The notes beneath the pieces were generated by a model. The model was not told the origin of the DNA. It saw nothing but the letters and a program-made list of their open reading frames with translations, and made no database searches. A stretch of 64,000 nucleotides of DNA from Spirochaetia bacterium (GTDB taxonomy: Bacteria; Spirochaetota; Spirochaetia; UBA9216), in the NCBI GenBank assembly GCA_963677925.2, contig CAXXYH010000003.1:64001-128000 (forward strand), read 5' to 3'. Below are positions 27,668-61,739 of the stretch, piece after piece. Within the stretch, counting starts at the first letter, position 1. Every line of letters begins with the position of its first letter. The translations under genes and the position numbers were made by a program.

Positions 27668-27695
27668 GCCGTTAATACCAGACCGCACGACGGAG

Positions 27696-28319
27696 TCAAG
27701 GGCTGGTTTCTAATTCTTGATTTTCCAACCTCTCTTTAATTTTATTATAAACTTCATATTTATCTAAATCAGGATTTAAAACAATTTCTATCAAATAATC
27801 ATATTCTATCATTCTCATTGACATAATTTTATCCAGATCAACAGTATTCCATTTTTCTTCAGTCATATCTGGTTCAGTTGGTAATTCAACCTCGATTATC
27901 CACCACTTATCAATCTTAGCGATCAATCTTTTTATTTCAAACAAATATTTCGTATTTATCTCTTTTTCAGAATCTGATAAATATTTAAATAATTCATGAG
28001 CGACTTCATTTCTATGAATTGTTATTTCTTCAATTATTTTCACTTCATTATCATTTATTATTTTACGATTTTGCAACCATTTTATTGAACTTTGAAATTT
28101 TCTTTTTTTAGGATCTAATTCTAATACATTCAGGATGTATCTATCACTATATGTTGTTTTATTATTTTTATATCCGTTAATATAGAAAGATTTCAAATTC
28201 TCCACTATTGATTCTTTTAAAAGTTCATATCCGGTTAAAAACAAAGAAGCAGTTATAAAATTAGCAAATAAACTATCAGGATTTAGAAATTTTAGCCAAT
28301 CGTTATCAGATTTGGTCAT
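27696..28319 (-). CDS. Cassette: hypothetical protein, HEPN-like RxxxxH
   Basis: RNEVAH motif. Confidence 0.6.
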   Translation of the reverse strand: MTKSDNDWLKFLNPDSLFANFITASLFLTGYELLKESIVENLKSFYINGYKNNKTTYSDRYILNVLELDPKKRKFQSSIKWLQNRKIINDNEVKIIEEITIHRNEVAHELFKYLSDSEKEINTKYLFEIKRLIAKIDKWWIIEVELPTEPDMTEEKWNTVDLDKIMSMRMIEYDYLIEIVLNPDLDKYEVYNKIKERLENQELETSP

Positions 28320-28945
28320 AGTTTCTCTTCATCTTTTATCTTCTCTACAATCAAGTCGAAATCTTCTTGCGTATTACTAAGTAATAATTTAGCAATTTCA
28401 GTATTTTTCATTTCCAAATATTCTTGCACTTCATTAAACTGCTGAGAATTATTCCCCATAGACCAGGCCGCAGAAACACGAGTGTAAAATAAATTCTTCT
28501 CAAAATCTTTTAAAGAAGAACCATCAATAATTTTATATAATATTTTTAAATATTTAACATCACCATATGCAAAATATGATGCCCAAATCATATCATTCAA
28601 CTCTGGGCTGTAATTTTCTTTAACATAATAATCGTCTATATTAGTTCTTGAAATTGTATTAAAATAGCCTTTTACTTTTTCATTTGCTTTTTCATCAATT
28701 ACAGCCATAATATCTTTCTTAATATTGTCATCTTCGAATAAAGTTGAATAAAAAGCCAAATATATATTTGTTAATTCTGGGCTTAACTCATCCACATCTT
28801 GAAAATAATCTATTGTGATATCAACAATTTCATTTGTTCTATTTTGAAAAAAGTGCATTATATATATCGTAAAATCTTCTGAACTAATTGAAAATAGATT
28901 AGAAGCTGTTAGTAACAATGTAATTATTAATAATATCTTTTTCAC
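28316..28945 (-). CDS. Cassette: secreted hypothetical protein
   Basis: N-terminal signal peptide; overlaps next gene (ATGA). Confidence 0.7.
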   Translation of the reverse strand: MKKILLIITLLLTASNLFSISSEDFTIYIMHFFQNRTNEIVDITIDYFQDVDELSPELTNIYLAFYSTLFEDDNIKKDIMAVIDEKANEKVKGYFNTISRTNIDDYYVKENYSPELNDMIWASYFAYGDVKYLKILYKIIDGSSLKDFEKNLFYTRVSAAWSMGNNSQQFNEVQEYLEMKNTEIAKLLLSNTQEDFDLIVEKIKDEEKL

Positions 28946-29081
28946 CTTTCATCTACTCCTTGACTCATTTTTTTTAAATCTTCATAGCCCGTCGGCCGGA
29001 GGTCCGGGCTATTTCTTTGGTCTTATTTTACACCCACCTGCGAATATATTCTAATACTTTTAGCTATATCTAAATTCGTGC

Positions 29082-29220
29082 ATATAACGACGATTTGAGT
29101 AGCGAAACCGGCCGAGTCTTCGAGGCTTGGCGCAGTTCTGGAACGTAGCGCGATCAGCGCGGAGTGTCTTTAGCCAGAACTGTGACAAAGGTTTTGACTA
29201 CTCCAAATCTCTTGTTATAA
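29082..29220 (-). repeat. attC family A
   Basis: atataac...gttataa. Confidence 0.9.
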
Positions 29221-29228
29221 AGCAATCT

Positions 29229-30290
29229 TCATATTTCTAAATATTTTAAAATAATCTCACATCTTTGTAGTATAGATAGCGCATCATTAGTGCCTTGTTG
29301 TGTCATATTAAAATAATCATATAATTCATAATTAGCTTTATCGAATTCATTTTCTGCAATTTCTCTATTATCCTGAACTTTATCAACAAATTCTTCAAAA
29401 TGCTTTCTACTTATTTTTGTAACCAAATTCCTTTTAATTAACTCATCAAATACTAGATAGAAAACAACCATATTACCTTGTGCTGATAACAATTTATCAT
29501 TATCAATAAAAATATTAGTCATTACATCTAATTTTCGAATTACTTCTTTTGTCAATTCATTAACAAATTTTTTATTTCCACTTTTATATCTTTTAGTTAT
29601 ATCGTCTAAGAAAACTTTCTTTGTATCAATCAATTTTTCATTTTTACTCAATTTCTCTTGAGTTAATAATAATCTACAAGCGATTTCTCTATGTTGATAT
29701 CTTTTGTTAGTAAATTTAACTTTTTCTTTAAAAAACTTATGATTAGCTACTTTTCTTATTGATACAACAAAATCTCCACCTAAGGCGTTTCGTTTCTCAG
29801 CTGAATTTAGTGGAGCAGCTTCATTTAGCCTAGAAAACATTTCTTCTATTAAATCTATCTCATCTGTTCTTACTAAAACAATAGGTAAAACAAATGAATC
29901 GAATATAATTTTTATCTTTGGATATTTTTTTGAAATATCATTATAACTCATTCCACTTAAATTTATTTCCTTATTTTTTAAGTATTCGAAATTTTTATCC
30001 AAGGTAAATTTATTTTCAATAAAATCCCAAATTGTTTCTAATCTTTGTTTGCCATCTATTACAGAGTAAGAAAACCCAGATTTCAATTTTTCATCTTGTT
30101 CATAAACATGAAAATATAGTTTAGGTATATCATATTCATTAATTATTGAATCAATTAACAATTTCTTTTTATCTTCTGTCCAAATCTGACTATTTCTTTG
30201 ATAGTCAGGATCTAACACAAGTTCATCTTTTTCTGAATAAATTCGTAAAATTGCGCTATTTGTTAACTCATAAGTATCAATGAAACTCAT
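29229..30290 (-). CDS. Cassette: DUF262 (ParB/GmrS-like) protein
   Basis: PDYQR...W, VIDGKQRL, FSRLN. Confidence 0.85.
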   Translation of the reverse strand: MSFIDTYELTNSAILRIYSEKDELVLDPDYQRNSQIWTEDKKKLLIDSIINEYDIPKLYFHVYEQDEKLKSGFSYSVIDGKQRLETIWDFIENKFTLDKNFEYLKNKEINLSGMSYNDISKKYPKIKIIFDSFVLPIVLVRTDEIDLIEEMFSRLNEAAPLNSAEKRNALGGDFVVSIRKVANHKFFKEKVKFTNKRYQHREIACRLLLTQEKLSKNEKLIDTKKVFLDDITKRYKSGNKKFVNELTKEVIRKLDVMTNIFIDNDKLLSAQGNMVVFYLVFDELIKRNLVTKISRKHFEEFVDKVQDNREIAENEFDKANYELYDYFNMTQQGTNDALSILQRCEIILKYLEI

Positions 30291-34227: not shown

Positions 34228-34417
34228 CGACCAAATTGAGTTGCGCCCTCGATCCTGGACACTGGAATAAGTTAAATGCTGCTGTTTAGTCGGAAAAGTA
34301 ACGGTTTTAGTAATGTGTGTCCAGGAATTGGCGTGGTTCCAGAGTGGAGCGATTAGCGGAACGTCTCCGCTGGAACCATGACAATAGACGGCGTCAACTC
34401 CAATTTATTTGTTATGT
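34222..34417 (-). repeat. attC family A, long-loop variant
   Basis: Side arm tcctggacac...gtgtccagga with ~55-nt loop. Confidence 0.85.
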
Positions 34418-34438
34418 TCATTTTTTTAATTATAATTA

Positions 34439-35476
34439 TTATTTGTCAAAAGTAATATTTTTAATATTTCTCCAATCAGTTTCCATGATAATATCAATTT
34501 TTATTTCATTTTCAGTATCTATTAATTCTATATTTTCATTTTCGAAGCTTAACAATTTTATATGCATTTTGCTAATGGAAATACCAATATTTTTCTCTAT
34601 TTCACTTCTTTTTTCATTAATTATTTCAATTATTTTTTTTTGGATTTGTTCCCAAATAATGGCAGATTGAATATAATTCATTGTTGCCTTTGTACTACGT
34701 CCGGCAGTATTAATACCTCCGCCTGGAGAAAAATAGAGATCACCATCGATTGAGGTTGATGTCGAACCACCAGCTTTTCTAATAGAAATCCTTTCACTTT
34801 CAGTTATATTTTGTTCGGGATTATGTATGTTTTCAAATTTTGAGTTTTCCAAAATCTCTGGAAAATCATTTTTGATTATTTTTAGTAAATCCAAATCTGC
34901 CCATTTACCATGGTTATCAATACAAAGGAAGAATGCAATATCTTTGTAAAAAGTTAAATATAAAATTTCTGCTGTAGTCTCAACTAAATAAGGCTTATCT
35001 TTATGAGGTTCTATTCCGAGATGTAAATGATATATTCCCCAATCAAATAGCATTCCATCTTGCATAGTAGAAGCCTGTATTCCACGGCTGACATGTGGAT
35101 ATAAAGACTCTCCATTTTTTATCTTTTTTTCTAAGTTATCTAAACCTTTTCTTAAATATGTAGGACACTTAAAATCTCTAGAATATTTTACTTTTCTTGG
35201 GATAGATTCAGGAATTTTATATAATAGATTATGATAAGTTATTATTAATTCAGATTTAAATTTATTTTTTAAAGATTTTTCTTCAAGTAGTTTTTCAACA
35301 TTAGCAAAGTTTTTTTTCTCTTTTTTTAAAGTATTAATTCTATTTTTGTAGTCAACAATTTTTTGAGCTTTCCAATCATCATATTCAATAAAAGTAAAAC
35401 CAATAGTTTTTAATTCATTAATCTTCAATAAAATCTTATTTTTCCAATCGTTTATTAAATTTATCGTGATTTCCAT
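34439..35476 (-). CDS. Cassette: hypothetical protein
   Basis: ORF; DWGIYHLHLG motif. Confidence 0.7.
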   Translation of the reverse strand: MEITINLINDWKNKILLKINELKTIGFTFIEYDDWKAQKIVDYKNRINTLKKEKKNFANVEKLLEEKSLKNKFKSELIITYHNLLYKIPESIPRKVKYSRDFKCPTYLRKGLDNLEKKIKNGESLYPHVSRGIQASTMQDGMLFDWGIYHLHLGIEPHKDKPYLVETTAEILYLTFYKDIAFFLCIDNHGKWADLDLLKIIKNDFPEILENSKFENIHNPEQNITESERISIRKAGGSTSTSIDGDLYFSPGGGINTAGRSTKATMNYIQSAIIWEQIQKKIIEIINEKRSEIEKNIGISISKMHIKLLSFENENIELIDTENEIKIDIIMETDWRNIKNITFDK

Positions 35477-35619
35477 TTTTTACCTCTTATTGAGATAATT
35501 TTTATAATTTTAAGTATAATACCAAATTTTAATAAAAAAAATATTGTATTTGGTATCGAATAAACATTATGGTAAATTAACTAAAATTTAAAAATTATAT
35601 TTTAGTTAATTGTAAATGA

Positions 35620-35816
35620 ACATAACGACCTTTTGAGCTGCGCCCTCGTTCCTGGCCAGAAGAGTTATATTGTTCTTGCGGTTTGTGAGTAAAATGGGTC
35701 AGATTTATTGAAGGTCTGGCAAGGAATTGGCGCGGTTTTTGAGTGAGCGATTAGCGAACGGCTGAAAGCAAAAACCGTGACAATAGACGGCGTCTGCTCC
35801 AAAAGACTTGTTATGT
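35620..35816 (-). repeat. attC family A, long-loop variant
   Basis: acataac...gttatgt. Confidence 0.85.
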
Positions 35817-35828
35817 CGATTTTGTCTA

Positions 35829-36431
35829 TTATTTTCTAAATATCTTTAAAACAGGTGTTAATAAACTTTTATTGATTGCCTCACTATCTTTCAAGCTATA
35901 TAGCTTTCTTTCTAAATATTCACCTTTTAATGTCATATAAGAATCTGAATAATTAATTGTTTTTGGTTCAGTAAAAATCTTCTTGTAGGAATATTCAATT
36001 TGGCCAATTATATTTTCATATTTTTTTATCCACTTAACGTTTTCTTTTCTTGCGATTTCATTAAAAATCCCTGCTAAAATTATTGGCTCTGAATCTAATG
36101 AATCAAAAAGTGAAAATCGAAAGAAGATAACTTTTAAATCAGGTGAAAAATTTGTTATTGTTTGGCCTTTTTCTAGTTTGGTGAAAATTTCAGGAATAAA
36201 TGTTACGGAAAAATTCTTTAATAACCAATATGGTACATTATTTGATTCTAAGCCAGTTGAACTTCTTGCCGAAATACTATAGCCAGACGGTCTGGCGATT
36301 AAAAAATTCTCTTCTTCATTACTTAGTATGCCTTCAATTTCTTTTATGAGATAAGAAATTTCAAAAAAAAGTTTTTCAATAAAATTAAAAGCGTTATTAG
36401 ATTGAATAATTAAATTTTTGCCATCATCCAT
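35829..36431 (-). CDS. Cassette: hypothetical protein
   Basis: Coupled to the upstream nuclease-like gene. Confidence 0.7.
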   Translation of the reverse strand: MDDGKNLIIQSNNAFNFIEKLFFEISYLIKEIEGILSNEEENFLIARPSGYSISARSSTGLESNNVPYWLLKNFSVTFIPEIFTKLEKGQTITNFSPDLKVIFFRFSLFDSLDSEPIILAGIFNEIARKENVKWIKKYENIIGQIEYSYKKIFTEPKTINYSDSYMTLKGEYLERKLYSLKDSEAINKSLLTPVLKIFRK

Positions 36432-37257
36432 AAAATTCTCCTGAAAAAAATATATTGTTGGTAAAATTTCTTATTACTCCAATATCTTCCAATGAAGAAA
36501 AATGTTTCTTAATGGAGTTGAAGAAAATGGTTTTATCATTAGTTATTTTGTTTATGGTATTTGTATCATTTAAACTGTTTATAAAACCGATAAAATGTCC
36601 TCTAAATTTAGATTTTTTAAAATTAAAGAAAATTTCGTTGCGATCTTCTATCTGAGAATTGAATTGATTCAAATTTTTCAAATCAAATTTTATTAGTTTT
36701 TTCTTTTCAAGAAGTAAATATAAATCAAGAGCAAAATATAAATTTTGCTGCATTTTATCAATAAATAGTTTTTGATAAAGAAATGTAGAAATGGATTGCC
36801 AATTTGTCCAAATATGATATTTTTTCTGGGTTGAATTAATAATATTAAACTTTTCTTTTTTGTAAAAATAATCAGCTGTAACTGTTAAATAGATAAAGTT
36901 AAGATTTTGGTTTGATGCTTCTTGTAATCCCATTTCGATTTCTCTGTTAATTTGAGAATCAATTTTGTTTGTTGCATCTGAAAAATTTGAGAAATATTTT
37001 GCTTCAACTAAAATATAATAAATTCCTGCAATAATAACTAAATCAGGTTCAGTTCCATCAATGAATTTAGGCCAGAAAATGAATTGTGCATTATTTACAT
37101 CATTTACAGTAACTTCAAGATTAAGATTTAATAAATAATTAAATAAATAGATTGAACGATCTGAATACTTAAAAAAAGAGAAAACGTTTGAAGTTAATAT
37201 ATCCTCTAAATTGTCTAATTTTGAAGATATTTTTCCATTTAATTCCGCTTGGTACAT
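36424..37257 (-). CDS. Cassette: PD-(D/E)XK nuclease-like protein
   Basis: EDILTS, TEPDLVI...ILVEAKY. Confidence 0.7.
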   Translation of the reverse strand: MYQAELNGKISSKLDNLEDILTSNVFSFFKYSDRSIYLFNYLLNLNLEVTVNDVNNAQFIFWPKFIDGTEPDLVIIAGIYYILVEAKYFSNFSDATNKIDSQINREIEMGLQEASNQNLNFIYLTVTADYFYKKEKFNIINSTQKKYHIWTNWQSISTFLYQKLFIDKMQQNLYFALDLYLLLEKKKLIKFDLKNLNQFNSQIEDRNEIFFNFKKSKFRGHFIGFINSLNDTNTINKITNDKTIFFNSIKKHFSSLEDIGVIRNFTNNIFFSGEFYG

Positions 37258-37312
37258 TTATTTTAATATTATAATTGAAAAAATTAAAATGTAAACAATT
37301 ATTTGTAAAGCG

Positions 37313-37514
37313 ACATAACGGCCCAATTGAGCTGCGCCCTCGATCCTGGACATCCGAATGAGCTAGTTCTTCCTGTTTTTGGTTTAAAAGGGTGGGTTGT
37401 AGAAATGGTGTGGCCAGGAATTGGCGCGGTTCCAGAGCGGAGGGCGATAAGCCCGCAGCGTCTCTGCTGGAACCGTGACAATAGACGGCGTCAGCTCCAA
37501 TTGATATGTTAACT
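37313..37514 (-). repeat. attC family A, long-loop variant
   Basis: acataac...gttaact. Confidence 0.85.
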
Positions 37515-37934
37515 TCCAGTATCGAGGGTTAGATGTTTCCTCTTTTAATAATCACAACCGAAAAGCAAATATTTATTCAGTAAAGAAATGGGTTGTAAGT
37601 GCGATTCTTTATCTTTCCAGTAATGAAATATTTATCAATTTGGATTAAAAATGGTAGCCGAAGAGCAGTAAAAGAAAGCAAGCATGCCTTAAAAATGCCA
37701 TGAGGACTATTTATAGCCTAAAAGATAAGTACAAAACCGAAAAACATGAATGGGGTGCGCGGGATGAGCGAGGCCCAGCGTGGAGAACAGGCGAATATGC
37801 GTGGGATTTCTCTTGAGCGCGGAAGCCTGTTCAATAAGGGCTCGAACCGTGAATATAGTGAAAAATGCTCATGCTTGAGGCCCTTATCCAGAAAGGCAAA
37901 AATATTATAAAGCCCTCCCCGGAGGGGAAGTTAA
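37515..37934. other. Gene-less structured cassette (ncRNA candidate)
   Basis: No ORF >=60 aa; cores gttaacttcc/ggaagttaac; nested inverted repeats. Confidence 0.7.
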
Positions 37935-38125
37935 CGACCCAATTGAGCTGTTCCCTCGATCCTGGACAAAGATTTATTTATTTCTTATGGTTTTGGGGGT
38001 GAAAAAGTAGGTTTTAGTGATGGTTTGGCCAGGAATTGGCGCGGTTCCAGAGTGGAGCGAAGAGCGGAACGTCTATGCTGGAACCGTGACAATAGACGGA
38101 ATCTGCTCCAATTGACTTGTTATCT
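37929..38125 (-). repeat. attC family A, long-loop variant
   Basis: agttaac...gttatct. Confidence 0.85.
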
Positions 38126-38991: not shown

Positions 38992-39111
38992 AATATATTA
39001 GCTTACTCTTATATTACAACGAATTTGAGAAATTGCAATCATTTCTCTATTTACCATTATATAAATATTATTAAAAAAATAAATTTAAATTTTGAATTTC
39101 CCAATTATTGA

Positions 39112-39250
39112 AGATAACGACGTTTTGAGTAGCAAAATCGTTCGGCGTCTTCGCCGAATTGGCGCGATTCTGGAGTGAGGGCCATTGCCCGAACGTCTTT
39201 AGCCAGAATCGTGACAATAGATTTTGACTACTCCAAAACTCTTGTTAAAT
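39112..39250 (-). repeat. attC family A
   Basis: agataac...gttaaat. Confidence 0.9.
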
Positions 39251-39296
39251 GCCGTTTCTTACCAGACCGCACGGTAGAGCCAAGGTCTGGTTAATT

Positions 39297-40016: not shown

Positions 40017-40034
40017 CTCTTAAATCTTCATTTT

Positions 40035-49847: not shown

Positions 49848-49853
49848 ACTTAT

Positions 49854-50032: not shown

Positions 50033-50178
50033 TGATAACGACGAAATAAGTTGCGCCCTCGATCCTGAGCCGAAGGCGAAGGAATTGGCGTGATTCTGGA
50101 GTGGAGCGCGATCAGCGTGGAACGTCTCCGCCAGAATCATGACAATAGACGGCGACAACTTCATTTCATTTGTTATAC
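50033..50178 (-). repeat. attC family A
   Basis: tgataac...gttatac. Confidence 0.9.
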
Positions 50179-50185
50179 GGATTTT

Positions 50186-50476
50186 CTATACTTTTTCCAA
50201 TAATTTCCCAGATACATATTTATGCAATATCATTGAAACCAGGGTTTGATATGGTAATCCTTCTTCCATTGCTTTTATCTTCAAATTCTTCAAATCTCTT
50301 TCTGATATTCTTATATTCATCCTTTTATCTTTTTTCATCGTAGCTTCAGCATATTTTTTTGCTTGAAGCCTATATTCTTCATTTTCTTCTATTTCTTCCC
50401 ATTCACCTTTCTCAAGTGAATTTATTAAATCGCGTTCTTCTTCATCTATCGGAGTAAACATATTTTCCTCTTTCAT
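50186..50476 (-). CDS. Cassette: CopG/RHH-type antitoxin
   Basis: KDKRMNIRISERDL..K.KA.EEGLPYQTL. Confidence 0.85.
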   Translation of the reverse strand: MKEENMFTPIDEEERDLINSLEKGEWEEIEENEEYRLQAKKYAEATMKKDKRMNIRISERDLKNLKIKAMEEGLPYQTLVSMILHKYVSGKLLEKV

Positions 50477-50760
50477 TCCTTTCCTCCATTCTTCAATAAT
50501 TTCTTCGTATATTCCCTACTCGGGTATATTGTCTTTAGAAATATCTCTTCACCTTCTTTATTTTCAACAAAAGGCACTATATATATATAATCATTATAGT
50601 TGATTAGATAAATTTTCTGATTTCCATATTTTTCTTCATTTGGATGCCTTAAGACTTTTACAACTTTTCCTTCAGAAATACACAATATAATTTCTTCAAA
50701 TGACATGTTTCGTTGTTCCTTCAGTATTTCATTCTTTTCATCATTCCAATTATATGTCAT
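50473..50760 (-). CDS. Cassette: BrnT-like toxin
   Basis: YNWNDEKN..LK..R..SFEEI, FLKTIYPSR. Confidence 0.85.
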   Translation of the reverse strand: MTYNWNDEKNEILKEQRNMSFEEIILCISEGKVVKVLRHPNEEKYGNQKIYLINYNDYIYIVPFVENKEGEEIFLKTIYPSREYTKKLLKNGGKE

Positions 50761-50766
50761 ATTATA

Positions 50767-50795
50767 AAGATAAGCTCACGTGTGCCTTTTGTCAA
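50767..50795 (-). promoter_or_regulatory. sigma70-like promoter of the TA cassette (leaderless)
   Basis: TTGACA-17-TATCTT, ATG 6 nt downstream. Confidence 0.65.
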
Positions 50796-50896
50796 TACTT
50801 TATATTTCTTAATTTTTTACGGAGTCTCGATTTAACCACAAATGGCCCACTAAACTATGAAATCTATCAATATTATTTTATCTAATTCTTAATTCC

Positions 50897-51034
50897 GTAT
50901 AACGACGATTTGAGTAGCAAAACCGGCCGAGTCAGCGAGGCTTGGCGCAGTTCTGGAACGTAGCGCGATCAGCGCGGAGTGTCTCCGCCAGAACTGTGAC
51001 AAAGGTTTTGACTACTCCAAATCTCTTGTTATGT
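50897..51034 (-). repeat. attC family A
   Basis: gtataac...gttatgt. Confidence 0.9.
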
Positions 51035-51598
51035 TTCAGTATCTCTATCTATTAAAGCTCTAATATTCTCTCGATTCTTTAATCTATTAATTTCTTTATA
51101 AAAAAATCTTAATGATTGTTCATTGAAAATGTCATGCATATATTCAAAAGCATCCTTAATTTCAGATGTTAATTCCATTATATCGACACTATCGTATTTT
51201 CTTATCATTTTATGAGCAAGTAAATTTCTTGTTGCATTTAGTTTCTTGCTTAATATTAATATATCTTCTTTACCTTCAAATTGAAAAGAATCTTTAATAT
51301 AACTGATTATATTGCCAATAGGGATATCTAAATTATGTTCTTTTATTTTCTTTGGATATGCCTTACATTTTTCAATTAAATCTATATACAATAATACCAA
51401 TTTTAAAATTTCTTTTTGCAATTGATTATAAATAAATACTGATGCTATTCTTCCTTCAATTGTATTTTGTTCAAACATTTGTGATGCTTTTTTATTTAAT
51501 TTCACATGTGGTTCAATATTCTCTATCCAGAGACGATTAGGAGTATCAATTAAATCTAGTTTCAATATTTCTTCATATTCCATATATTCTATCTCCAA
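51029..51598 (-). CDS. Cassette: hypothetical protein, HEPN-like RNLLAH
   Basis: RxxxxH motif. Confidence 0.6.
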   Translation of the reverse strand: MEIEYMEYEEILKLDLIDTPNRLWIENIEPHVKLNKKASQMFEQNTIEGRIASVFIYNQLQKEILKLVLLYIDLIEKCKAYPKKIKEHNLDIPIGNIISYIKDSFQFEGKEDILILSKKLNATRNLLAHKMIRKYDSVDIMELTSEIKDAFEYMHDIFNEQSLRFFYKEINRLKNRENIRALIDRDTET

Positions 51599-52434
51599 AA
51601 TCTATGATCGTATCTATAAATATTTTTCATATTTTCATAGTCAAATTGAAAAAAACCTCTATCATGAAAATCATATATCTCTTTTTCTACTTTAATACTT
51701 TCTATAATCTCAATTTTATCATTTTCAAAAGATTCAAAACAGGTATAGTCATCTAAAATAATTTCCGAGTCAATTTGAATCTTAAAATATCTAGAAATTG
51801 CTTTTCTATACATATATATTTTGTCATATGACGTAACCGCTTCTATAGGGACTCTACATTTTAAAATGTATGGAACACCATTATTCCTTAAAAATCTCCT
51901 ACAAATTTCTGGATTTAAACTAGTTACAATACCTAATAGCGTTTCACTCCCATATATTAAATAATGACATGAACCATCATGGTCAAAGCAATGAATATTA
52001 GAGCAAAAATTCAAGTTCATATCATTAATTCGGTTAGTATTGTTCTCTATTGCCTTCTGTATCTCTTCATCAGCAAATCCATCAAACATGGTTTTACATA
52101 TATATTCATAATCACTTTTTCTTAATATTTTTAAACTGGTAAAACCACCTTGAAATAGTTTAGTTGCATGATATCCGTAAATATTATTTAATGAATTTTC
52201 TATTAATTCAATTTGTATATCATTATCATAGAATTTATAATCAATCAAATAGCCGTCTATAATTTCTTCAATTACTGAATAGAAATCTAATCCACTTTGG
52301 TAAGGATCTATTTTCAATATCTCTTCTCTTACATAATCAAGAAGATACTTATTTATATGTTCTTCGAGCAAATTGATATATACTTCTTTATCATCTAAAT
52401 CAATAACATCATACATATTTATTATATTTCTCAC
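51589..52434 (-). CDS. Cassette: hypothetical protein (YHAT motif, ART-like fold possible)
   Basis: GYHATK, YGSE. Confidence 0.6.
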   Translation of the reverse strand: MRNIINMYDVIDLDDKEVYINLLEEHINKYLLDYVREEILKIDPYQSGLDFYSVIEEIIDGYLIDYKFYDNDIQIELIENSLNNIYGYHATKLFQGGFTSLKILRKSDYEYICKTMFDGFADEEIQKAIENNTNRINDMNLNFCSNIHCFDHDGSCHYLIYGSETLLGIVTSLNPEICRRFLRNNGVPYILKCRVPIEAVTSYDKIYMYRKAISRYFKIQIDSEIILDDYTCFESFENDKIEIIESIKVEKEIYDFHDRGFFQFDYENMKNIYRYDHRFWR

Positions 52435-52462
52435 TCATTTTATTCCAATTTTTCTTCTGTAA

Positions 52463-52601
52463 ACATAACGACGATTTGAGTAGCGAAACCGGCCGAGTCT
52501 TCGAGGCTTGGCGTAGTTCTGGAACGTAGCGCGATCAGCGCGGAGTGTCTTTAGCCAGAACTATGACAAAGGTTTTGACTACTCCAAATCTCTTGTTATC
52601 T
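52463..52601 (-). repeat. attC family A
   Basis: acataac...gttatct. Confidence 0.9.
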
Positions 52602-53241
52602 ATATTATTTTTCTTATCAAAATTCCTCGTTCTGCAAAATATTTTTTAAATAGTTCCAATTGTATTTTGTAATTTTGTTGAGTTCTTATTTCATCTCCTG
52701 AAGGATTATTAATATAAATAGTATTGTTCAAATTATCGACACCTGATACAACAACAAGATGACCACCTTTTTCCCCATTATATGTCATATCCGGTTTACG
52801 GATTAAATAATGTACCGACACAATAAATATATTGCCATCTAATGTTGCATTAAATATCTCATCTGTGTTTAAAGGTGAAACAGAGTTTGCATCTAACTGA
52901 AAACTATCCTTTAAATATTCACAAAACGGTACATAAAATAATCCATCAATACTTTCCTTATTAACTTTAGATCCACCATATTCAGTACATTCTTTTGCTA
53001 ATTGGATTATAGGTGGTGAATCAATCTTCCAGTATTCTAAAATCATTTTCAAACATGCCATTCCGCAAATGTTTTTAGCCCATAATTCATATTCTTTAAC
53101 ATTATTTGCTCCAGAATATTCCCATAAAGGATCATTTGTTGCTTGGATTTTACCAGATATAATTTCTCCTACTATCTCACGAGACATCCATTGTGAATAA
53201 TAAGGCATTTCATTAAGTATAATTTTTTGACTATTAACCAT
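52600..53241 (-). CDS. Cassette: C39-like cysteine peptidase (copy 1)
   Basis: PYYSQ, CGMACLKM, GHLVVVSG, INNP. Confidence 0.8.
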   Translation of the reverse strand: MVNSQKIILNEMPYYSQWMSREIVGEIISGKIQATNDPLWEYSGANNVKEYELWAKNICGMACLKMILEYWKIDSPPIIQLAKECTEYGGSKVNKESIDGLFYVPFCEYLKDSFQLDANSVSPLNTDEIFNATLDGNIFIVSVHYLIRKPDMTYNGEKGGHLVVVSGVDNLNNTIYINNPSGDEIRTQQNYKIQLELFKKYFAERGILIRKII

Positions 53242-53771
53242 TTTCCCAACTTAAAATTTGATAGACAATAATATAGAGCTTTATTCCCAATTTTTTTGGG
53301 TTAATTCTATCACCTAACATAATCATTTACATTTATTCAATAGCTTAGTGCTTTTGTATATTCATATTCTTCTTATTTACCTCATAATACGGTAAAATCT
53401 ATTCAAAGACATTAGATCTATTTCCGAATGTTCAGACCGAGCCTTATATACAAATTTCTAATAACCACATGTACAGAAATTCTTGTATTTTTTCATTTTA
53501 AAGCTGTTTTCAGACTATTGGAACTATATTTTATTAATTATTCTATATTGTTCTTTTGGATATAGGCAATTGTTAAGTAAGTCTTTAGCTGATAAATACT
53601 TAATGATTTTAAATGCAATTGAAAATCATTAATTTCCTTTATTCTTATAATTCTTATAGGCTTAAGATTTTAATAACAAACTGCTTTTTTAAAGAATTCT
53701 AATTGTATTAAGCTTGTACACTAATTCATTAGAAATTTGATGACAGAGTTATCCGCCTGTACCCGAATTAT

Positions 53772-53909
53772 AGATAACGACGATTTGAGTAGCGAAACCG
53801 GCCGAGTCTTCGAGGCTTGGCGCAGTTCTGGAACGCAGCGCGATCAGCGCGGAGTGTCTCTGCCAGAACTGTGACAAAGGTTTTGACTACTCCAAATCTC
53901 TTGTTAAAT
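53772..53909 (-). repeat. attC family A
   Basis: agataac...gttaaat. Confidence 0.9.
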
Positions 53910-53988
53910 GCCTTATTATCCAGACCGTACGGCGGAGCCAGGTCTGGATTTCTTCATTATTATTTTTTTGATATTAATAAAGTTTTTA

Positions 53989-55152
53989 TTAAACCTCTTG
54001 TATTAATTCATTTTTATAGAAATTTTTTAAACTTTCTTCATATGCTAAATATGGTCTTTTTATAGATTCGGTTGATAATTTTATTAATTCTGATAACCAA
54101 ATAATTAGATCAACTAATGCATTTTCAATTCTAAATTTATCTATTTCAAAATGTAACCCTTTATTAAATAAGTCTAAAAGACGATCAGCTTCATCCCCAA
54201 GTTCAGTTAATTTATTTGTTTCTTTTATATTATTTTCTTCAATTGTTTTTTCAATATATGCCCATATTCTATTTTTAAACTTATCATTTCCAACATCTCT
54301 CCCTTTCCATTTTTCTTTTTGTGCAGGGAAAAGGTAATTTGCAATTTTTTCTAAAAATCTTCTTCCAGATATTGCAACTTGAGCAAAATCATCCTCTGTT
54401 TCAGCATTTTTAAATACTCTTGCAGCAGAAGCTAAAGTTTCAAAAATCTTTGGATGAAGCTCTTCAATAAAAAAGCTGACGTCTGATGCAATTTCATCAT
54501 TTAATCCATTTAACTTAGAAAAAATATCTTTAAATTCTTCAACTCTTTTAAAATGTTCTAAACTATCATAATTATCAAAAATTGTTCTTCTTGCGCCTAT
54601 ATCTTCATAATTAACAATAAATCCATTTTTTTCGAAACAATTCTTTATGGAGATATCGGGATCTTCATTATCATTCATATGGTAAAAGATTGAGCATTTA
54701 TTTGAAATTAATCCATATTCTTCACATAATGAATTCCTAAATAATGCCAAATGTGGGCCATAATTAAAAATAACATCCATAGCTCCAAGATAAGTTTTAT
54801 CATCTCGTAAAATTACATCAATGTTAGAAGCAATTTCATATGTCATATTTTGAAAAACCCAACAAAAAACTGTTGCAGTTGTAAATGTACTTTCCAACTC
54901 TGTTTCTTTAAGCTTATTATATTTATGAGGTCTATAAACTTTTCTACAAACTTCTTCCAGATGAGCATAAGTTCTATTCTGACTTTGAGAAACAATTCCA
55001 TAAGTTAAAACGTCTCCTATCGAAAGCCTCATATGTCTCTTTGTATTTTGTAAAATGTTAGTTCTAAGTATTTTATTCATTATCGGAATACCATAAAATC
55101 CATCATACTCTTCATGATCTGAATTAAATAGAAAAGCAATATTCATACACAT
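53989..55152 (-). CDS. Cassette: hypothetical protein with HEPN/Abi-like C-terminus
   Basis: SGRRFLE...NRIWAY...NKGLH. Confidence 0.65.
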   Translation of the reverse strand: MCMNIAFLFNSDHEEYDGFYGIPIMNKILRTNILQNTKRHMRLSIGDVLTYGIVSQSQNRTYAHLEEVCRKVYRPHKYNKLKETELESTFTTATVFCWVFQNMTYEIASNIDVILRDDKTYLGAMDVIFNYGPHLALFRNSLCEEYGLISNKCSIFYHMNDNEDPDISIKNCFEKNGFIVNYEDIGARRTIFDNYDSLEHFKRVEEFKDIFSKLNGLNDEIASDVSFFIEELHPKIFETLASAARVFKNAETEDDFAQVAISGRRFLEKIANYLFPAQKEKWKGRDVGNDKFKNRIWAYIEKTIEENNIKETNKLTELGDEADRLLDLFNKGLHFEIDKFRIENALVDLIIWLSELIKLSTESIKRPYLAYEESLKNFYKNELIQEV

Positions 55153-55294
55153 CCCTTCGTCATAATTTTTTAATAAGAGTTAATTACTCCCCACAATCGC
55201 CCGTCGGCCGGAGGTCCGGGCGATTTCTTATTCCTTATATTACCCCCTAAAACGATTATCAGCTAATATTTTTATTATTACATTCTCTAAGTGC

Positions 55295-55434
55295 ATTTAA
55301 CGACGTTTTGAGCTGCCTGGCGGCGCGAGTCTTCGCGCGCATTGGCGTGATTCTGGAGTGCAGCGCGATCAGCGCGGAACGTCTATGCCAGAATCATGAC
55401 AATAGCCAGGACTGCTCCAAAACTTTTGTTAAAT
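55295..55434 (-). repeat. attC family A
   Basis: atttaac...gttaaat. Confidence 0.9.
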
Positions 55435-55520
55435 GCTATACCCAAACAACCCAATCCATAAAATAAAAATGTGGCGCAGCCCGAAGCCCGAATGGGCTGA
55501 GCATATAGCCCCTGTTATAG
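55435..55520 (-). repeat. Right half of split family-B att site
   Basis: aaaataaaaatgtggcgcagccc...catatagcccct gttatag. Confidence 0.8.
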
Positions 55521-55619
55521 GAAGTATTTTGGCTCTTGAGTCAGACCGTACATCGGAGATAGGGCTGGCCTCTTAAACATACAACTTTCAACTTTAACAG
55601 TATCCTAAAACAAACTTTG

Positions 55620-56747
55620 TCAATTAAAAGCATACTTCACTAAAGCTATTTCATTCTCACTATCACTACCTTTTTCAAATAAAAATAAGTTATCTCCAGT
55701 TTGAAGTTTTCTTACAACTTCGATGTCTTTCAAATCCTCATCAATAGTCCCAATCCATCTTGGACTATTTAACTCTCTTATATCATAAACAAAATAATTC
55801 CCGATTAAAATATTATTAAAATCAAAATCTAAATCAAAATAACTAAACAAGTTTATTTCATCTGTTGAATTACATTTTTGTAGAAATTCATATTTTTTTT
55901 CACTATCTAATTTTATTATGCTCCAAAAATACTCTTCTGAATTTAAACCTCTTGCTCCATCACTTACTATAATATCATTATATATATTAAATCCATTGTC
56001 CTCTAAACTGATAGAATTTATATCGACCAATTCATAATTATTAGAAATATTAGTAATATCATAAACAATCATTTGATTTGTTATTGTAAAAGGATTACCA
56101 TCTTTATCAACTTTAAGCTCACTTGAAAAAGTGTATAAATAATTTGAATTTAAGTAAATTTCTTTATCAATTACTCCTTCGAAAGAATCTAAATAATGTC
56201 TTTCAATTTCTAGCATATTATCAGCATCCAAAATTAATAATAGTTTATAGTATGAAAATGAATTAGAATCTAAAATATAAATTTTATTATCCATACATCT
56301 TAAACTTAAATAATAGGTAGTGTTTAAATTATAGGTATTATTTTCACTAATAGAATATTTAAAAGATGGATTTGTTATATCCTCAATCAAATATACCAGA
56401 CAATCCGTTGACCCTAGAAGATACAAATAATTTTCATAAATATACAATTGTTTAAAATCAGGAACAATATCATTATAATAATTTGAATTATCAACCCAAG
56501 GGATGGTGGAAACTTCAATCAATCCTTCCAAATCTATCAAGTGCACCATCCCATCAGTACTATAATATACTAAAACTTTAGAAGTCTCAGATATAAACGC
56601 AGAGAATGAATCTGCTTTTTCATCTAAAATAAGTTTTGTATCTTTAGAAAATATTTGATTGAAATGGTATCCATTTTGATAATATGGAAAAAAGTTTTTA
56701 CATGAGGTTATTCCTAATAATAATAAAAATAATAAAATCCTTTTCAA
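55620..56747 (-). CDS. Cassette: lipoprotein, probable beta-propeller
   Basis: Lipobox-like LLGITSC; repeated YDI-type strands. Confidence 0.7.
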   Translation of the reverse strand: MKRILLFLLLLGITSCKNFFPYYQNGYHFNQIFSKDTKLILDEKADSFSAFISETSKVLVYYSTDGMVHLIDLEGLIEVSTIPWVDNSNYYNDIVPDFKQLYIYENYLYLLGSTDCLVYLIEDITNPSFKYSISENNTYNLNTTYYLSLRCMDNKIYILDSNSFSYYKLLLILDADNMLEIERHYLDSFEGVIDKEIYLNSNYLYTFSSELKVDKDGNPFTITNQMIVYDITNISNNYELVDINSISLEDNGFNIYNDIIVSDGARGLNSEEYFWSIIKLDSEKKYEFLQKCNSTDEINLFSYFDLDFDFNNILIGNYFVYDIRELNSPRWIGTIDEDLKDIEVVRKLQTGDNLFLFEKGSDSENEIALVKYAFN

Positions 56748-56860
56748 TACGTTTCATTCCTTATATATTGACATAATATATCAATTTTAAATTTTATTCT
56801 TTTTTTCTTATTGCCCGTCGGCCGGAGGTCCGGGCGTCTTTCTCTTAGCCAAAATATTTC

Positions 56861-56954
56861 CTATAACGTCCCGGGGTTATATGACGTTTTTATTTTTTAA
56901 TTTTACCACCAATTACCCGTATTTACCATTTCAAACTGTTTTACCATGTTGTGC
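56861..56954 (-). repeat. Left half of split family-B att site plus linker
   Basis: ctataac gtcccggggttatatgacgtttttatttt. Confidence 0.8.
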
Positions 56955-57092
56955 ATTTAACGACGATTTGAGTAGCAAAATCGGCCGAGTCTTCGAGGCT
57001 TGGCGCAGTTCTGGAACGTAGCGCGATCAGCGCGGAGTGTCTCTGCCAGAACTGTGACAAAGATTTTGACTACTCCAAATCTTTTGTTATAT
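56955..57092 (-). repeat. attC family A
   Basis: atttaac...gttatat. Confidence 0.9.
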
Positions 57093-57106
57093 GGGATTTC
57101 CATTAT

Positions 57107-57601
57107 TTATGGATAAAAATTATGTTCTGGGTCTACAAATACGACATAAAAAGTATTCTTATCAAATGCTTTTCCAGTTTTACAATGGATTTTCCCATTA
57201 TATTCATCTGGAACTACAAAACCAATAAGCCTTTTATCATATTCTAAACGGAATCTACCCCATAGTACTTGATGTGGAATATATGAAGGATGTTTTAATT
57301 TTGAATGCTTTGGAAATGCACCATAATTTACATAAATACTGTTTCGGTGCTTCCCACTTCCAATTTTCATATTTTCCCAATGCTCTAAATTTTCTCTACT
57401 ATACTCAATTAATTTCTTAAATATTTTATTACTATCATCCTTCTGCATATTCTTTATATCTTCACATAAAGACTGAGAGCTATCAAAATAGCTGAAATTA
57501 AATTTCATTCTATTGGATAGAGTATCGGTTTCAGAATCAAGACTAGCTTGTGGAAAAGAATTAATAAACGAATCTTTTTTACTATTCTGAAAATTTTTCA
57601 T
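57107..57601 (-). CDS. Cassette: hypothetical protein, partner of the ATPase (RelE-like fold possible)
   Basis: RFRL...RLIGF...FYVVFVDPEH; ATGA overlap. Confidence 0.65.
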   Translation of the reverse strand: MKNFQNSKKDSFINSFPQASLDSETDTLSNRMKFNFSYFDSSQSLCEDIKNMQKDDSNKIFKKLIEYSRENLEHWENMKIGSGKHRNSIYVNYGAFPKHSKLKHPSYIPHQVLWGRFRLEYDKRLIGFVVPDEYNGKIHCKTGKAFDKNTFYVVFVDPEHNFYP

Positions 57602-59859: not shown

Positions 59860-60246
59860 CTAAAATAGTGGCATTATAAATTGTTCATCTTTATTAAAAG
59901 ACCACTGAACTTGCCACGTTGAACCTGTAATTTGATCTAAAAGGATAAAATTCCACATATTACTAGTATAATATAGTGTAAATCTTCCATCTATCTTTTT
60001 TTTATTTTCTGCCAGATTCTTATCATTTAAAATTACTCCACCTCTTTCATTATCTTCTACAGAATATTGTAAAATCCACATTTTTCCCGTAGCAGTCTCT
60101 AGTTCAATAAATGTCCAAATATTTTGTGTTTTAAAGAGTCGATAAGGAGCATTAGGATCTTGAGTTGATTCTATAACCTGAGTTTGTGCTATTAATCCTG
60201 TAGATATAATAAAAAAGACAACTAAAAATATCATAACTTTCTTCAT
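59860..60246 (-). CDS. Cassette: secreted hypothetical protein with internal duplication
   Basis: Signal peptide MKKVMIF; repeated T.N.W.FI.L...TG..W unit; GGAGG SD. Confidence 0.75.
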   Translation of the reverse strand: MKKVMIFLVVFFIISTGLIAQTQVIESTQDPNAPYRLFKTQNIWTFIELETATGKMWILQYSVEDNERGGVILNDKNLAENKKKIDGRFTLYYTSNMWNFILLDQITGSTWQVQWSFNKDEQFIMPLF

Positions 60247-60283
60247 AATATCCTCCAAAACTATTTAACCCTTCTTAGAATAT

Positions 60284-60419
60284 GTATAACGACGATTTGA
60301 GTAGCAAAATTGATCCGCGTCTTCGCGGAATTGGCGCGATTCTGGAGTGAGCGATCAGCGAACGTCTTTAGCCAGAATCGTGACAATAAATTTTGACTAC
60401 TCCAAATCTCTTGTTAAAT
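60284..60419 (-). repeat. attC family A
   Basis: gtataac...gttaaat. Confidence 0.9.
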
Positions 60420-60508
60420 GCTTTTGCCCAACTTACCCAATTCATAAAATAAAAATGTGGCGTAGCCCAAGGAGCGCTTAGCGACGAAGCAAATAACCCC
60501 TGTTATAC
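60420..60508 (-). repeat. Right half of split family-B att site
   Basis: aaaataaaaatgtggcgtagccc...aataacccct gttatac. Confidence 0.8.
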
Positions 60509-60603
60509 GCTTTGAGCTTGACATACAGACCGTTCAACGGAGTTAGGTCTGGATTCTTTATCTAATATAGTAAAATTTTTATCGGAATAATTAATATTAT
60601 ACT

Positions 60604-61638
60604 CTAATCAACCCAAGCAGGTACTTCAGGAGCAAAATCTATTTTATTAGTTACTAACCGATATGCTAATGCCTCTCCTTCATGTTTTATATCAATAGAT
60701 GTTATTTCACATTTGAAAATATGTTGATATTTCTCAGTTAGAACTTCATACGCTTGTTGATTCAGGAGAGTATTAGAAGCTTCTGTATTTGACATTCGAC
60801 AAGCATATACTACAGGGACTCCAACAACAGTGTACTCATTATTTATGATATTCAACGAAACCTCTCCATAATCAATCCCAATGCCTAATCCTATATTATT
60901 TAAAATAACGTTAAAACATGATTTTGATTGATCATAAACTTTATTAAATTCTTCATGACATTCAATTGAACTTTTTAAAGCATAAAACAGAGCATCTTTT
61001 CCTGAATAAAAATCAGGAAAAAATGCAAGAATCCCATCGCCAGTAAATTTATCAAATATACCATAATTTTTTTGTATTATTTTAATTATTCCTTTTATTA
61101 GCTCATTTATAAATTCAGAGAATTTATCTGGGGTTCTTGACTTTAACATTAATTCTGTAGATCTTCTAATATCCAATGAAAACACAACAGCATTTGATTT
61201 TCTCACTTCCTCAAATTGCTTTCTAAATTTTTCATCATTTAGTAATTTGGTTTGAGCTGCTTCATTAATCCTATGATAAATGTATCTTAATTTATATTTA
61301 TTCTGAAGTTCTTCGAATTTATCCTTTAGCACTTTTGTTTCATCTCTTGGATTTTTATTAAAAGTACCAAGTTTTTTTGCCATATCTGCTATTTCATCAA
61401 AAGTGCTAAAATAGTTTTCAAATTTTATGGATTTTAATGTTTCGTCTAATTGATCCAACACATCAAAAGCTATTGATTTAATATTTCTATCAGAAAAATC
61501 TTTTAGAGCCTCAGCTAATTCTTTTATTTTTTCTTCTTCTAAATAACTTTTTGTTAAAATAGCATCTACTTTTGAAATATTATTTTTAGATTCTCTTAAT
61601 GCTTTTCCTGACTCTTCTTTTGCATCATCAAAATTCAA
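60604..61638 (-). CDS. Cassette: class III adenylate/guanylate-type nucleotide cyclase
   Basis: SLDIRRST, DKFTGDG, IGIDYG, GVPVVYACRM. Confidence 0.85.
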   Translation of the reverse strand: MNFDDAKEESGKALRESKNNISKVDAILTKSYLEEEKIKELAEALKDFSDRNIKSIAFDVLDQLDETLKSIKFENYFSTFDEIADMAKKLGTFNKNPRDETKVLKDKFEELQNKYKLRYIYHRINEAAQTKLLNDEKFRKQFEEVRKSNAVVFSLDIRRSTELMLKSRTPDKFSEFINELIKGIIKIIQKNYGIFDKFTGDGILAFFPDFYSGKDALFYALKSSIECHEEFNKVYDQSKSCFNVILNNIGLGIGIDYGEVSLNIINNEYTVVGVPVVYACRMSNTEASNTLLNQQAYEVLTEKYQHIFKCEITSIDIKHEGEALAYRLVTNKIDFAPEVPAWVD

Positions 61639-61739
61639 TATTACACCTCCAACTTTTTTATATCTAAAAATAAAAACTAAATATTAACTCGCCCGTCGGC
61701 CGGAGGTCCGGGCGTCTTATTCTTGTCAAGCTCATTGCG

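Follow-up and report, generated by a model that had tools for sequence, protein, structure and literature searches.

The closest described relatives of the elements analysed here are integron cassettes, which carry unrelated, promoter-poor genes separated by imperfect palindromes (attC sites) with ..TAAC and GTTA.. boxes, are exchanged through a crossover at G|TT, have first bases complementary to their own R'' box, are recombined as a folded bottom strand, and follow an attI-like junction by the gene of a tyrosine recombinase, the integrase IntI. All of these features recur in cassettes associated with a 64,000-nt stretch of DNA (hereafter the window) from a Spirochaetia bacterium of the GTDB lineage UBA9216 (assembly GCA_963677925.2, contig CAXXYH010000003.1, here C3; G000:C3:64001-128000), the genome of which is 5.04 Mb in size and 99.63% complete. 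In seven window cassettes the cargo genes are bracketed by two hairpins, termed left (L) and right (R). To our knowledge, the conserved 5' part of a canonical cassette is no longer than about 6 nt. The present cassettes differ in sharing a 5' module of about 55 nt, made up of R box, 10-nt private arm, linker, and R hairpin, together with a corresponding 3' module; in addition, the IntI insertion is missing from the associated recombinase, and one attC class is nested in another. L and R are very probably the outermost conserved end-modules of cassettes that derive from a second, integron-like platform.

Other described systems offer partial parallels. The long, lineage-specific attC sites of sedentary chromosomal integrons, such as the VCRs of Vibrio, exceed 100 nt and are highly conserved, with a variable apex; in the present case, conservation continues past the R boxes on either side into the adjacent cassettes and takes in two separate hairpins at the flanks. 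In integration of the CTX-phi type, one strand pair is exchanged between a folded single-stranded DNA (ssDNA) hairpin and a double-stranded site, and replication resolves the product. The Xer-type recombinase is likewise without the IntI domain, but CTX-phi brings a single phage genome into dif via the host XerCD, whereas here a presumably dedicated recombinase with a predicted HARP-like N-terminus heads arrays of tens of cassettes. Xer enzymes are known to recombine folded ssDNA (PMC3442271). The DUF1874 motif, which has several stems and lies in consecutive intergenic regions, is suspected by its authors to be an unusual, more complex ssDNA attC with no nearby integrase (Weinberg et al. 2017, PMC5737381); it belongs to a different sequence family, and Rfam searches gave no match in the window at the gathering score and, at the second-array sites introduced below, only a chance match to a snoRNA at E<=1 (E=0.62). 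Cury et al. 2016 hold the creation of cassettes to be unexplained; they do not count recombinases without the IntI domain near attC sites as integron integrases, and state that these always lie beside fewer than three attC sites. The attC sites of Spirochaetes were modelled by Ghaly et al. 2021, with the flanks unmentioned in the passages concerned. A literature search found no paper on attC-flanking hairpins or on cassette arrays headed by Xer/HARP recombinases.

From 19.4 kb to its right end at 64 kb, the window is occupied by an AT-rich array (about 30% GC) of minus-strand genes spaced by a repeat of about 135 nt. A profile search with nhmmer found 42 copies of this repeat in the genome, comprising 30 in the window, eight further left on C3, and four on a second contig, C4; all 30 window sites share one strand orientation. 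The repeat ends in ..TTAAC and GTTAA.. and folds as a long imperfect hairpin (positions 40608-40745 were folded), with an extra stem base in the 3' arm of the plus strand. The position of the extra base in an attC stem marks the bottom, recombining strand; therefore, the plus strand is the bottom strand of these sites, and the minus-strand genes lie on the coding strand. An integrase gene is located at C3:128199-129455, 199 nt past the right end of the window, and is divergent from the cassettes. Its product scored 382.5 against TIGR02249 (cut-off 265) and matched the IntI4 structure 2a3v continuously over residues 13-319. Since a canonical IntI with the additional domain adjoins this one-orientation attC cluster, the array is a canonical sedentary chromosomal integron, and we refer to its repeats as class-1 attC. 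The integrase reading frame (L001:1174-2433) encodes 419 aa, about 110 residues of which are N-terminal to the part aligned with IntI4.

R is GCCCGTCGGCCGGAGGTCCGGGC on the plus strand; six of its seven window copies are exact and one, at 42173, has one mismatch, and the pattern found no match in 100 shuffles of the window. A length-tolerant pattern recovered 7/7 L copies in the window, and a fixed-length one 4/7; chance alone would yield no copy of either hairpin. All hairpins lie on the plus strand. Reading from left to right, the brackets are L 27679-27705 and R 28987-29009 around a HEPN-like two-gene cargo; L 39263-39289 and R 40515-40537 around a DUF5677 protein and a ThsB-like TIR protein; L 40758-40783 and R 42173-42195 around Mrr and DUF2441 genes; L 47560-47586 and R 48525-48547 around an MBL-fold gene; L 53921-53946 and R 55199-55221 around a gene of 387 codons with an unknown product; L 55542-55567 and R 56813-56835 around a gene for a 375-aa protein in a cassette also present in the C4 array; and L 60526-60551 and R 61691-61713 around a Pycsar-cyclase-like gene, with an intact site of the second attC class next to this last R. 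Because the genes are on the minus strand, L marks the 3' end of the cargo, 0-52 nt past the stop codon, and R marks its 5' end, with 18-65 nt between R and the start codon. An earlier note on this DNA, made from the letters alone, had described these seven copies of L and R at the two cargo ends; they were found again at the same places, with the R coordinates given there taking in three flanking bases. The inner-stem variants of L that it listed (gac/gtc, ggc/gcc, atc/gat, and aac/gtt) are all present, as is the AGA loop that it placed at 39261, seen here in the L copy at 39263, where the inner stem has a G.T pair on the plus strand. The cargo proteins within the brackets (TIR with DUF5677, Mrr_cat with DUF2441, the MBL-fold protein, the cyclase, a HEPN-like protein with a weak match, and unknowns) proved mutually unrelated by protein comparison, as that note had stated, while its label 'lipoprotein' for one of them was not confirmed.

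The 30 class-1 sites delimit 29 intervals, of which seven contain both hairpins, none a single one, and 22 neither (Fisher p=6.4e-7), which bears out the co-occurrence seen at first. The further statement that neither motif occurs alone holds genome-wide for L, since 15 of 15 copies have R in the same cassette, and fails for one degenerate R with four mismatches, which is solitary (C4:1160283). Outside the window, the genome has nine more copies of R (searched with up to four substitutions) and eight of L, only in C4:1139215-1160305. A scan of the genome with a covariance model of L, as the earlier note had proposed, returned 14 matches, again only in the two arrays; in total, all 16 R and 15 L copies lie within them.

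The C4 region is itself a cassette array, with about 20 sites and a co-oriented gene for an Xer-like recombinase at its head. Read along its coding strand, each gene is followed by L, a purine linker, a palindromic stretch of about 95 nt, a second purine linker, and R, after which comes the next gene. The palindrome, ..TAAC-A-GGGGCTATGTG ... CACATAACCCC-GGGAC-GTTA.., is a second class of attC (class 2). Three observations place the crossover of class-2 sites at G|TTA, between attC and R. First, the regions behind the recombinase gene in this genome and in one of the same genus are alike up to ..CTGAG|TT, as at an attI junction, and then continue with different first cassettes. Second, the window cassette at 55620-56747 recurs in the C4 array with 97% identity, the homology beginning at G|TTATAGG. 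Third, a lone cassette outside any array (record L087) consists of TTA.., R, cargo, L, and attC. Insertion is site-specific, at a fixed junction beside the recombinase gene, and the same cassettes recur at other positions of the arrays. Since the crossover lies between attC and R, the two hairpins move with a single cargo. R, which begins 30-33 nt past the crossover (31 nt in 19/25), is therefore the 5' end of the cassette that follows, and L, whose end is 24, 28, or 29 nt short of the R'' box, is the 3' end of the one before. Thus, L and R do not belong to attC proper, which is what lies between the R'' and R' boxes and is common to all sites; they flank some sites from the outside. The C4 copy of the recurrent cassette (C4:1147931-1149057) has its gene split into reading frames of 297 and 76 aa, compared with 375 aa in the window. 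An apparently ORF-less class-2 cassette of about 404 nt (L121:12950-13351, with the region 12870-12950) was found once each in records L121, L039, and L042 and three times in L106; in a genome of the same genus, this cassette comes first behind the recombinase gene.

The recombinase gene of the C4 array (C4:1138043-1139116; L121:1043-2116) encodes 357 aa, is co-oriented with the cassettes, and ends 98 nt before the first R. The product is a tyrosine recombinase whose best matches among solved structures are XerA/XerC-like proteins. Relative to 2a3v, it has 24 residues in place of 65 (about 41 fewer), and its TIGR02249 score of 194 is below the cut-off of 265 and falls in two pieces; thus, the IntI insertion is lacking. 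The same split match was obtained for every ortholog examined with this model. Orthologs with 38-96% identity are located directly upstream of, and co-oriented with, R-bearing arrays in genomes G039, G066, G091, G134, G237, and G261; the last has 84 copies of R, and its only canonical IntI is broken and encoded elsewhere. A HARP domain was detected at the N-terminus of five of nine orthologs, in one of them above the cut-off. HARP domains bind forked DNA. By analogy with Xer recombination, an enzyme of the C4 type could plausibly act on folded class-2 attC.

The earlier note had asked for linkage to an HUH, reverse transcriptase, or recombinase gene and had likened the hairpins to the ends recognised by HUH enzymes. 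It is a tyrosine recombinase gene that proved linked to the hairpins. As in IS200/IS605 and REP/RAYT elements, two dissimilar, subterminal, imperfect hairpins of related architecture lie on one strand, with variable cargo between them; in those elements they are read as ssDNA. The analogy with HUH systems nevertheless fails, since the genome, at its completeness, encodes neither a Y1 transposase (PF01797, no match, with the control positive in 6/14 genomes) nor a reverse transcriptase (RVT_1). A search for HUH Y2 enzymes also gave no match, and is uninformative because the control was silent too. Moreover, the copies are not dispersed outside the cassette arrays, the pair keeps a fixed distance from the attC crossovers, and the cargo consists of arbitrary cassette genes. 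The missing Y1 gene, the non-dispersed copies, and the attC phasing rule out insertion sequence ends or REPs, and it is scarcely credible that L and R are HUH-recognised ends of single-strand transposons of the IS200/IS605, REP/RAYT, or rolling-circle kind, a reading which is largely refuted for this genome.

L and R go with the cassette rather than with the recombination site. Around 63 intact class-2 sites, both hairpins were present at 11, only R at 14, only L at 11, and none at 27 (p=0.28), while among 23 class-2 intervals with complementary ends, which are bona fide single cassettes, 12 had both, none had a single one, and 11 had none (p=7e-7); the cassette copies counted are related to one another, and the p-values therefore overstate the case. 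The matched pair around the cargo thus extends to the C4 array and across genomes, and outside the host genome the order of hairpins was RL in 47 cases, compared with five RR and two LL.

The complementarity of the cassette ends is a further feature of the class-2 kind. The 22-nt leader and trailer of the same cassette were complementary at 15 positions or more, typically 17-20, in 26/45 intervals, and the sequences facing each other across a class-2 site reached at least 15/22 in only 5/63 cases. Positions 1-8 and 11-20 pair, and positions 9-10 are mostly unpaired. The outer arm of 10 nt is private to each cassette and hypervariable, with the adjoining linkers and R constant (records L121, L029, L039, L042, L060, L073, L086, L106, and L116). 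Since pairing of leader and trailer needs joined ends or one shared strand, we infer that the private stem is a feature of the excised circle.

Cassettes without L and R have hairpins of another sequence at the same positions. Of nine distinct cassettes of this kind, eight have another 5' hairpin and all nine another 3' hairpin, designated type B as opposed to the L/R pair (type A). Type-B loops contain TCC on the coding strand, that is, GGA on the bottom strand, and the stems are perfect, with 5-13 bp. Type-B hairpins are also present in the window, where, on the minus strand, a 3' hairpin with a TCC loop (24957-24986) has its 5' partner at 25802-25825 in the same cassette, further 3' hairpins lie at 42524-42549 (in a cassette with class-2 attC halves at 42445-42494 and 43533-43556) and 45105-45128, and a MazEF cassette has its 3' hairpin at 61859-61872 and its 5' hairpin at 62498-62519. 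As cassettes lacking L and R have type-B hairpins in these places, cassettes of the class-2 kind generally end on either side in a hairpin with a GGA loop, of which L and R are the commonest allele pair. The bracket is thus real, and more general than the earlier note had it.

The bracketed units of the window are cassettes of the class-2 platform re-framed inside class-1 cassettes of the IntI array. In two of the seven (L 55542 with R 56813, and L 60526 with R 61691; form b), halves of a class-2 attC lie outward of the hairpins, and the 14-nt class-2 apex is replaced by a class-1 attC together with a spacer of 33 nt and a leader of 72 nt. The left halves are at 55469-55518, outward of L 55542, and 60455-60506, outward of L 60526; a right half at 56863-56886, outward of R 56813, contains the G|TTATAGG crossover and is separated from the class-1 attC by a conserved leader at 56886-56955, and a right half together with such a leader spans 62550-62643 (all on the minus strand). 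The class-1 attC sites at 55297-55431, 56957-57089, 60286-60416, and 62645-62778 on the plus strand accordingly lie in the apex of split class-2 sites. Such compound sites were observed in the window at 55297-55518, 56863-57089, 60286-60506, 62550-62778, 42270-42494, and 43533-43769, and four occur in C4, at 1142523, 1143764, 1145043, and 1149159; each is one locus with crossovers for two systems. The class-1 cassette between 60416 and 62645 encloses two class-2 cassettes with an intact class-2 attC between them (61742-61828, minus strand), one carrying the cyclase and the other a toxin-antitoxin pair of the MazE/MazF type (61880-62520), which thus has a class-2 cassette of its own within the class-1 cassette.

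The other five (form c) have no class-2 halves; L is followed by an 8-nt linker, 3-4 nt, and the class-1 attC. The form-c leader has the same length as that of form b and runs from attC via the purine linker directly into R. One such leader, at 40538-40609 on the minus strand, is conserved across species, with the purine-rich linker next to R (repeats D12 and D13), and the equivalent leaders are at 29010-29083, 42196-42269, 48548-48621, and 55222-55296. The class-1 sites of these cassettes, with the bottom strand on plus throughout, are 27528-27664, 39114-39247, 47417-47544, and 53774-53906, which abut L 27679, L 39263, L 47560, and L 53921, respectively; 29084-29217, whose R' side begins the leader ending in R 28987; 40610-40742, between R 40515 and L 40758; and 42270-42406 and 48622-48753. 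Form c with different cargo was found in four other records. All hybrid class-1 frames share one R-box variant, and ordinary class-1 cassettes have private variants; about 11 of the 30 window cassettes are of the hybrid kind.

Comparison of cargo genes with homologues in relatives, which the earlier note had suggested, showed that homology ends at the hairpins. For the MBL gene (47588-48469), a relative has a homologue with 67% identity in a class-2 cassette, and for the Mrr gene (41371-42147), another relative has one with 78% identity, also in a class-2 cassette. In both pairs, nucleotide similarity starts at R, which is identical, and in the MBL pair it stops at L; beyond the hairpins, the two copies differ, one continuing into the class-1 leader and attC and its counterpart into the class-2 arm and attC. 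The Mrr cassette of the window has an extra gene within the brackets. Non-cassette MBL homologues (35-46% identity) have no such hairpins, and are too distant to show where homology ends. Neither of the two patterns that the earlier note had named as telling against its reading was seen: no hairpins lie outside arrays in this genome, and no cargo homology runs through the hairpins. Its notion of an inner gene-capture unit stands insofar as the unit is defined from R to L with a differing attC frame around it, and changes insofar as this unit is the cassette of a second attC class and platform.

The same data admit a reading in which the hairpins mark points where cargo is inserted or swapped in pre-formed frames, by a structure-specific enzyme, for instance the HARP-Xer one, or by short-homology recombination at R and L. 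Unrelated cargo lies between the same hairpins in three frames (class-2, split class-2/class-1, and class-1 with leader), homologous cargo keeps its hairpins in differing frames with breakpoints at the hairpins and linkers, and the single R-box variant of the hybrid class-1 frames suggests one frame with many cargoes. However, no empty frame exists among 150 R-to-L pairs, the minimum gap being 557 nt; the only short cassettes are the ORF-less 404-nt repeats, which have neither L nor R; no intermediate was found, the distant MBL homologues included; and deletion of the class-2 halves from form b combined with ordinary recombination can yield form c. We regard cargo loading at the hairpins as unlikely.

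The pairing of L is upheld by compensatory changes. In 83 distinct copies, 94.5% of the cells are paired, and 9/12 pairs show changes on both sides; none of 500 shuffles reached this level and slid controls gave 12-49%, with the reservation that the alignment was fitted to its model, which favours the pairing score. The mismatches are also asymmetric between strands: among the 90 copies parsed of 94 distinct ones, non-Watson-Crick cells comprise 30 that read G.T on the bottom and A.C on the coding strand, compared with six of the reverse kind. R has one invariant bottom-strand G.T, and the private arms have 18 bottom-strand G.T compared with one. On the bottom strand, L and R have a common architecture, namely an outer stem, a 5'-side bulge of 2-4 nt, an inner stem of 3-4 bp, and a triloop. 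The plus strand of 40508-40792 folds into a hairpin, a long attC stem, and another hairpin (z = -6.3). Compensatory changes and the asymmetry of G.T versus A.C point to folding of L and R on the bottom strand of attC, the plus strand of the window, and so back the claim of the earlier note that the hairpins lie on the strand which folds in attC recombination.

R was found in 13 of 301 sampled genomes of the class, belonging to four families. Public contigs with R are mostly labelled Spirochaetia, and single matches in high-GC actinomycetes are at chance level; marine metagenome contigs contain class-1 attC, R, and class-2 halves at high depth. In record OY759746.1, both hairpins occur at nearly every site, and elsewhere bracketed and unbracketed cassettes share arrays, as might be expected if L and R were functionless relics of the extended attC of a donor lineage. 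Against such passive markers, R is identical over at least 23 nt in this range of genomes and although the cargo has diverged to 67-78% protein identity, and L maintains its pairing; neutral relics would decay, which makes this origin quite improbable.

A more serious alternative, though still a doubtful one, is that the hairpins act at messenger RNA ends, with R as a 5'-untranslated stem-loop behind a promoter located in the leader or in the apex of attC, and L as a 3'-end stem-loop, stabilising or insulating transcripts whatever the attC. Their distances from the start and stop codons are compatible with such a role, a -10-like box of the TAAAAT type lies in the conserved leader about 12 nt before R, and type-B 3' hairpins resemble intrinsic terminators on the coding strand, e.g., 42550-42523 with its T run. 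The persistence of hairpins in form c, where class-2 attC is absent, and the greater stability of L 40753-40790 on the coding strand also fit. On the other hand, the mismatches of L on the coding strand would be 30 A.C and only six G.U, and that of R is always A.C. On the coding strand, a U run follows neither L nor R, and no copy of either at 39000-57200 was called as an intrinsic terminator on either strand, a weak negative, as the scan cannot score bulged stems; terminators were rejected as the identity of L and R on these two grounds. In at least two C4 cassettes of the toxin-antitoxin type, a promoter-like site (TTGACA-17-TATACT, identified by eye) lies downstream of R, which would leave R outside that transcript, and a simple stabiliser would not need the invariance of R across genomes. 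A promoter scan gave 125 calls compared with 106 expected by chance, and is uninformative in DNA this rich in AT.

The bottom-strand asymmetry would also suit RNA, as G.U pairs, if the hairpins were terminators of antisense transcription or GGA-loop sites of the CsrA type, which belong to transcribed RNAs and usually coincide with a Shine-Dalgarno site. GGA lies on the strand antisense to the cargo, pyrimidine- or U-rich tracts follow both hairpins on this strand, CsrA is encoded in the genome (C4:2339507-2339662), and some bottom-strand type-B loops resemble the published CsrA selection consensus. The paired sites are, however, 0.6-3 kb apart, unlike those of known multi-site sponges, the hairpins are not called as terminators, and a U-rich antisense strand is general in A-rich coding DNA. 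An antisense RNA function is very unlikely.

The reading we prefer is that of a second, integron-like platform, which as an identification is very probable. It comprises a co-oriented Xer-like recombinase with a HARP-like N-terminus and without the IntI insertion, an attI-like junction (..GAG|TTAT..), and a class-2 array. On the coding strand, a cassette of this platform begins with G|TTAxxxx, AAT, the 10-nt cassette-specific arm, a purine linker, R, and the cargo; behind the cargo come L, again a purine linker, then the arm complementary to the first, xxxxTAAC, and finally the core of attC. Form b keeps the class-2 halves around a class-1 attC, and form c has lost the halves while keeping linker and hairpin. 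Once a cassette is excised as a single-stranded circle, its leader and trailer may zip into an extension of the attC stem of about 20 bp, with R and L at the forked base of the extended stem on pyrimidine linkers of 9-11 nt. There, they would most likely serve as structure-specific landmarks or folding clamps for the recombination substrate, either by preventing cargo sequence from joining the attC fold or by placing the recombinase or some host factor. This role would be independent of the attC class lying between the hairpins.

Identity and mechanism taken together have, in our estimate, an even chance of being right. Several points weigh against the proposal. The hairpins are kept in form-c cassettes without class-2 attC, which equally fits a cargo- or expression-linked role. 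Eleven of the 23 verified class-2 cassettes have type-B hairpins instead of L and R, which are therefore not required. Type-B stems show no strand bias (21 versus 19), and the wobble counts for L come from related copies, with fewer independent events than cells. By nearest-neighbour DNA energies, R is equally stable on both strands (-8.7 kcal/mol), and L 40753-40790 has -8.5 on the plus strand compared with -10.7 on the minus strand. The cGNAg triloop, emphasised in the earlier note, holds as GGA in 72 of the 90 distinct L loops and is not universal, the others being AAC, ACC, etc. Finally, as recombinase of the class-2 sites, the Xer-like enzyme is a candidate only. Since half of the cassettes do without the specific L and R sequences, and since type-B hairpins resemble common stem-loops of the coding strand, a part as structural landmark in a single-stranded recombination substrate is put forward tentatively, as slightly less than an even bet.

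One could go further and propose that the GGA-loop pair, of type A or B, is the docking boundary of a cassette-building pathway run by the HARP-Xer platform, in which new genes are loaded or exchanged between the hairpins of a ready-made frame, with a private 10-bp 'barcode' stem for each cassette. We consider this improbable; if true, the brackets would be a direct footprint of cassette genesis, and the platform a second integron-like lineage independent of the IntI insertion. The phrase 'footprint of cassette genesis' in the earlier note describes a possible meaning of the brackets.

The only part that textbook cassettes share is an attC at one end. In the present cassettes, both cargo ends are wrapped in a hairpin, a linker, and a private complementary arm, and the occurrence of the same bracketed cargo in three attC frames provides concrete, testable boundaries for models of how cargo is loaded or exchanged. 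An Xer-like recombinase without the IntI domain stands at the head of arrays of 20 to more than 80 cassettes, in contrast to the statements of Cury et al., and tools which require the IntI signature would class such arrays as integrase-less clusters. The cargo is largely related to anti-phage defence (ThsB-like TIR, Pycsar cyclase, Mrr, and HEPN-like proteins, with the MBL-fold protein also defence-like), and defence genes therefore have a route between two recombination systems in one genome.

Some further features of the region can be mentioned. The first 1-18 kb of the window are a defence island that interrupts the class-1 array, with eight more class-1 sites on its other side at C3:51629-60510; the island encodes a TOTE-type AEP primase-helicase, a large AAA protein, a type I restriction-modification system (HsdR/S/M), Fic, and a metallophosphoesterase. 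Immediately beyond the left edge of the window, C3:62023-62532 gives a weak match to tyrosine recombinases. Between the island and the first attC, positions 18100-18700 are GC-rich and non-coding, with long G/C runs and several inverted repeats, and gave no Rfam match. Four sites at 34317-38122 match the class-1 profile in their 3' two-thirds only and form a separate repeat family (D14 and D17), possibly a third attC subclass. The class-1 array also contains duplicated cassette segments, of which 52603-52902 and 62800-63099 are 99% identical, and 27170-27429, 53416-53674, and 63613-63871 are 73-78% identical.

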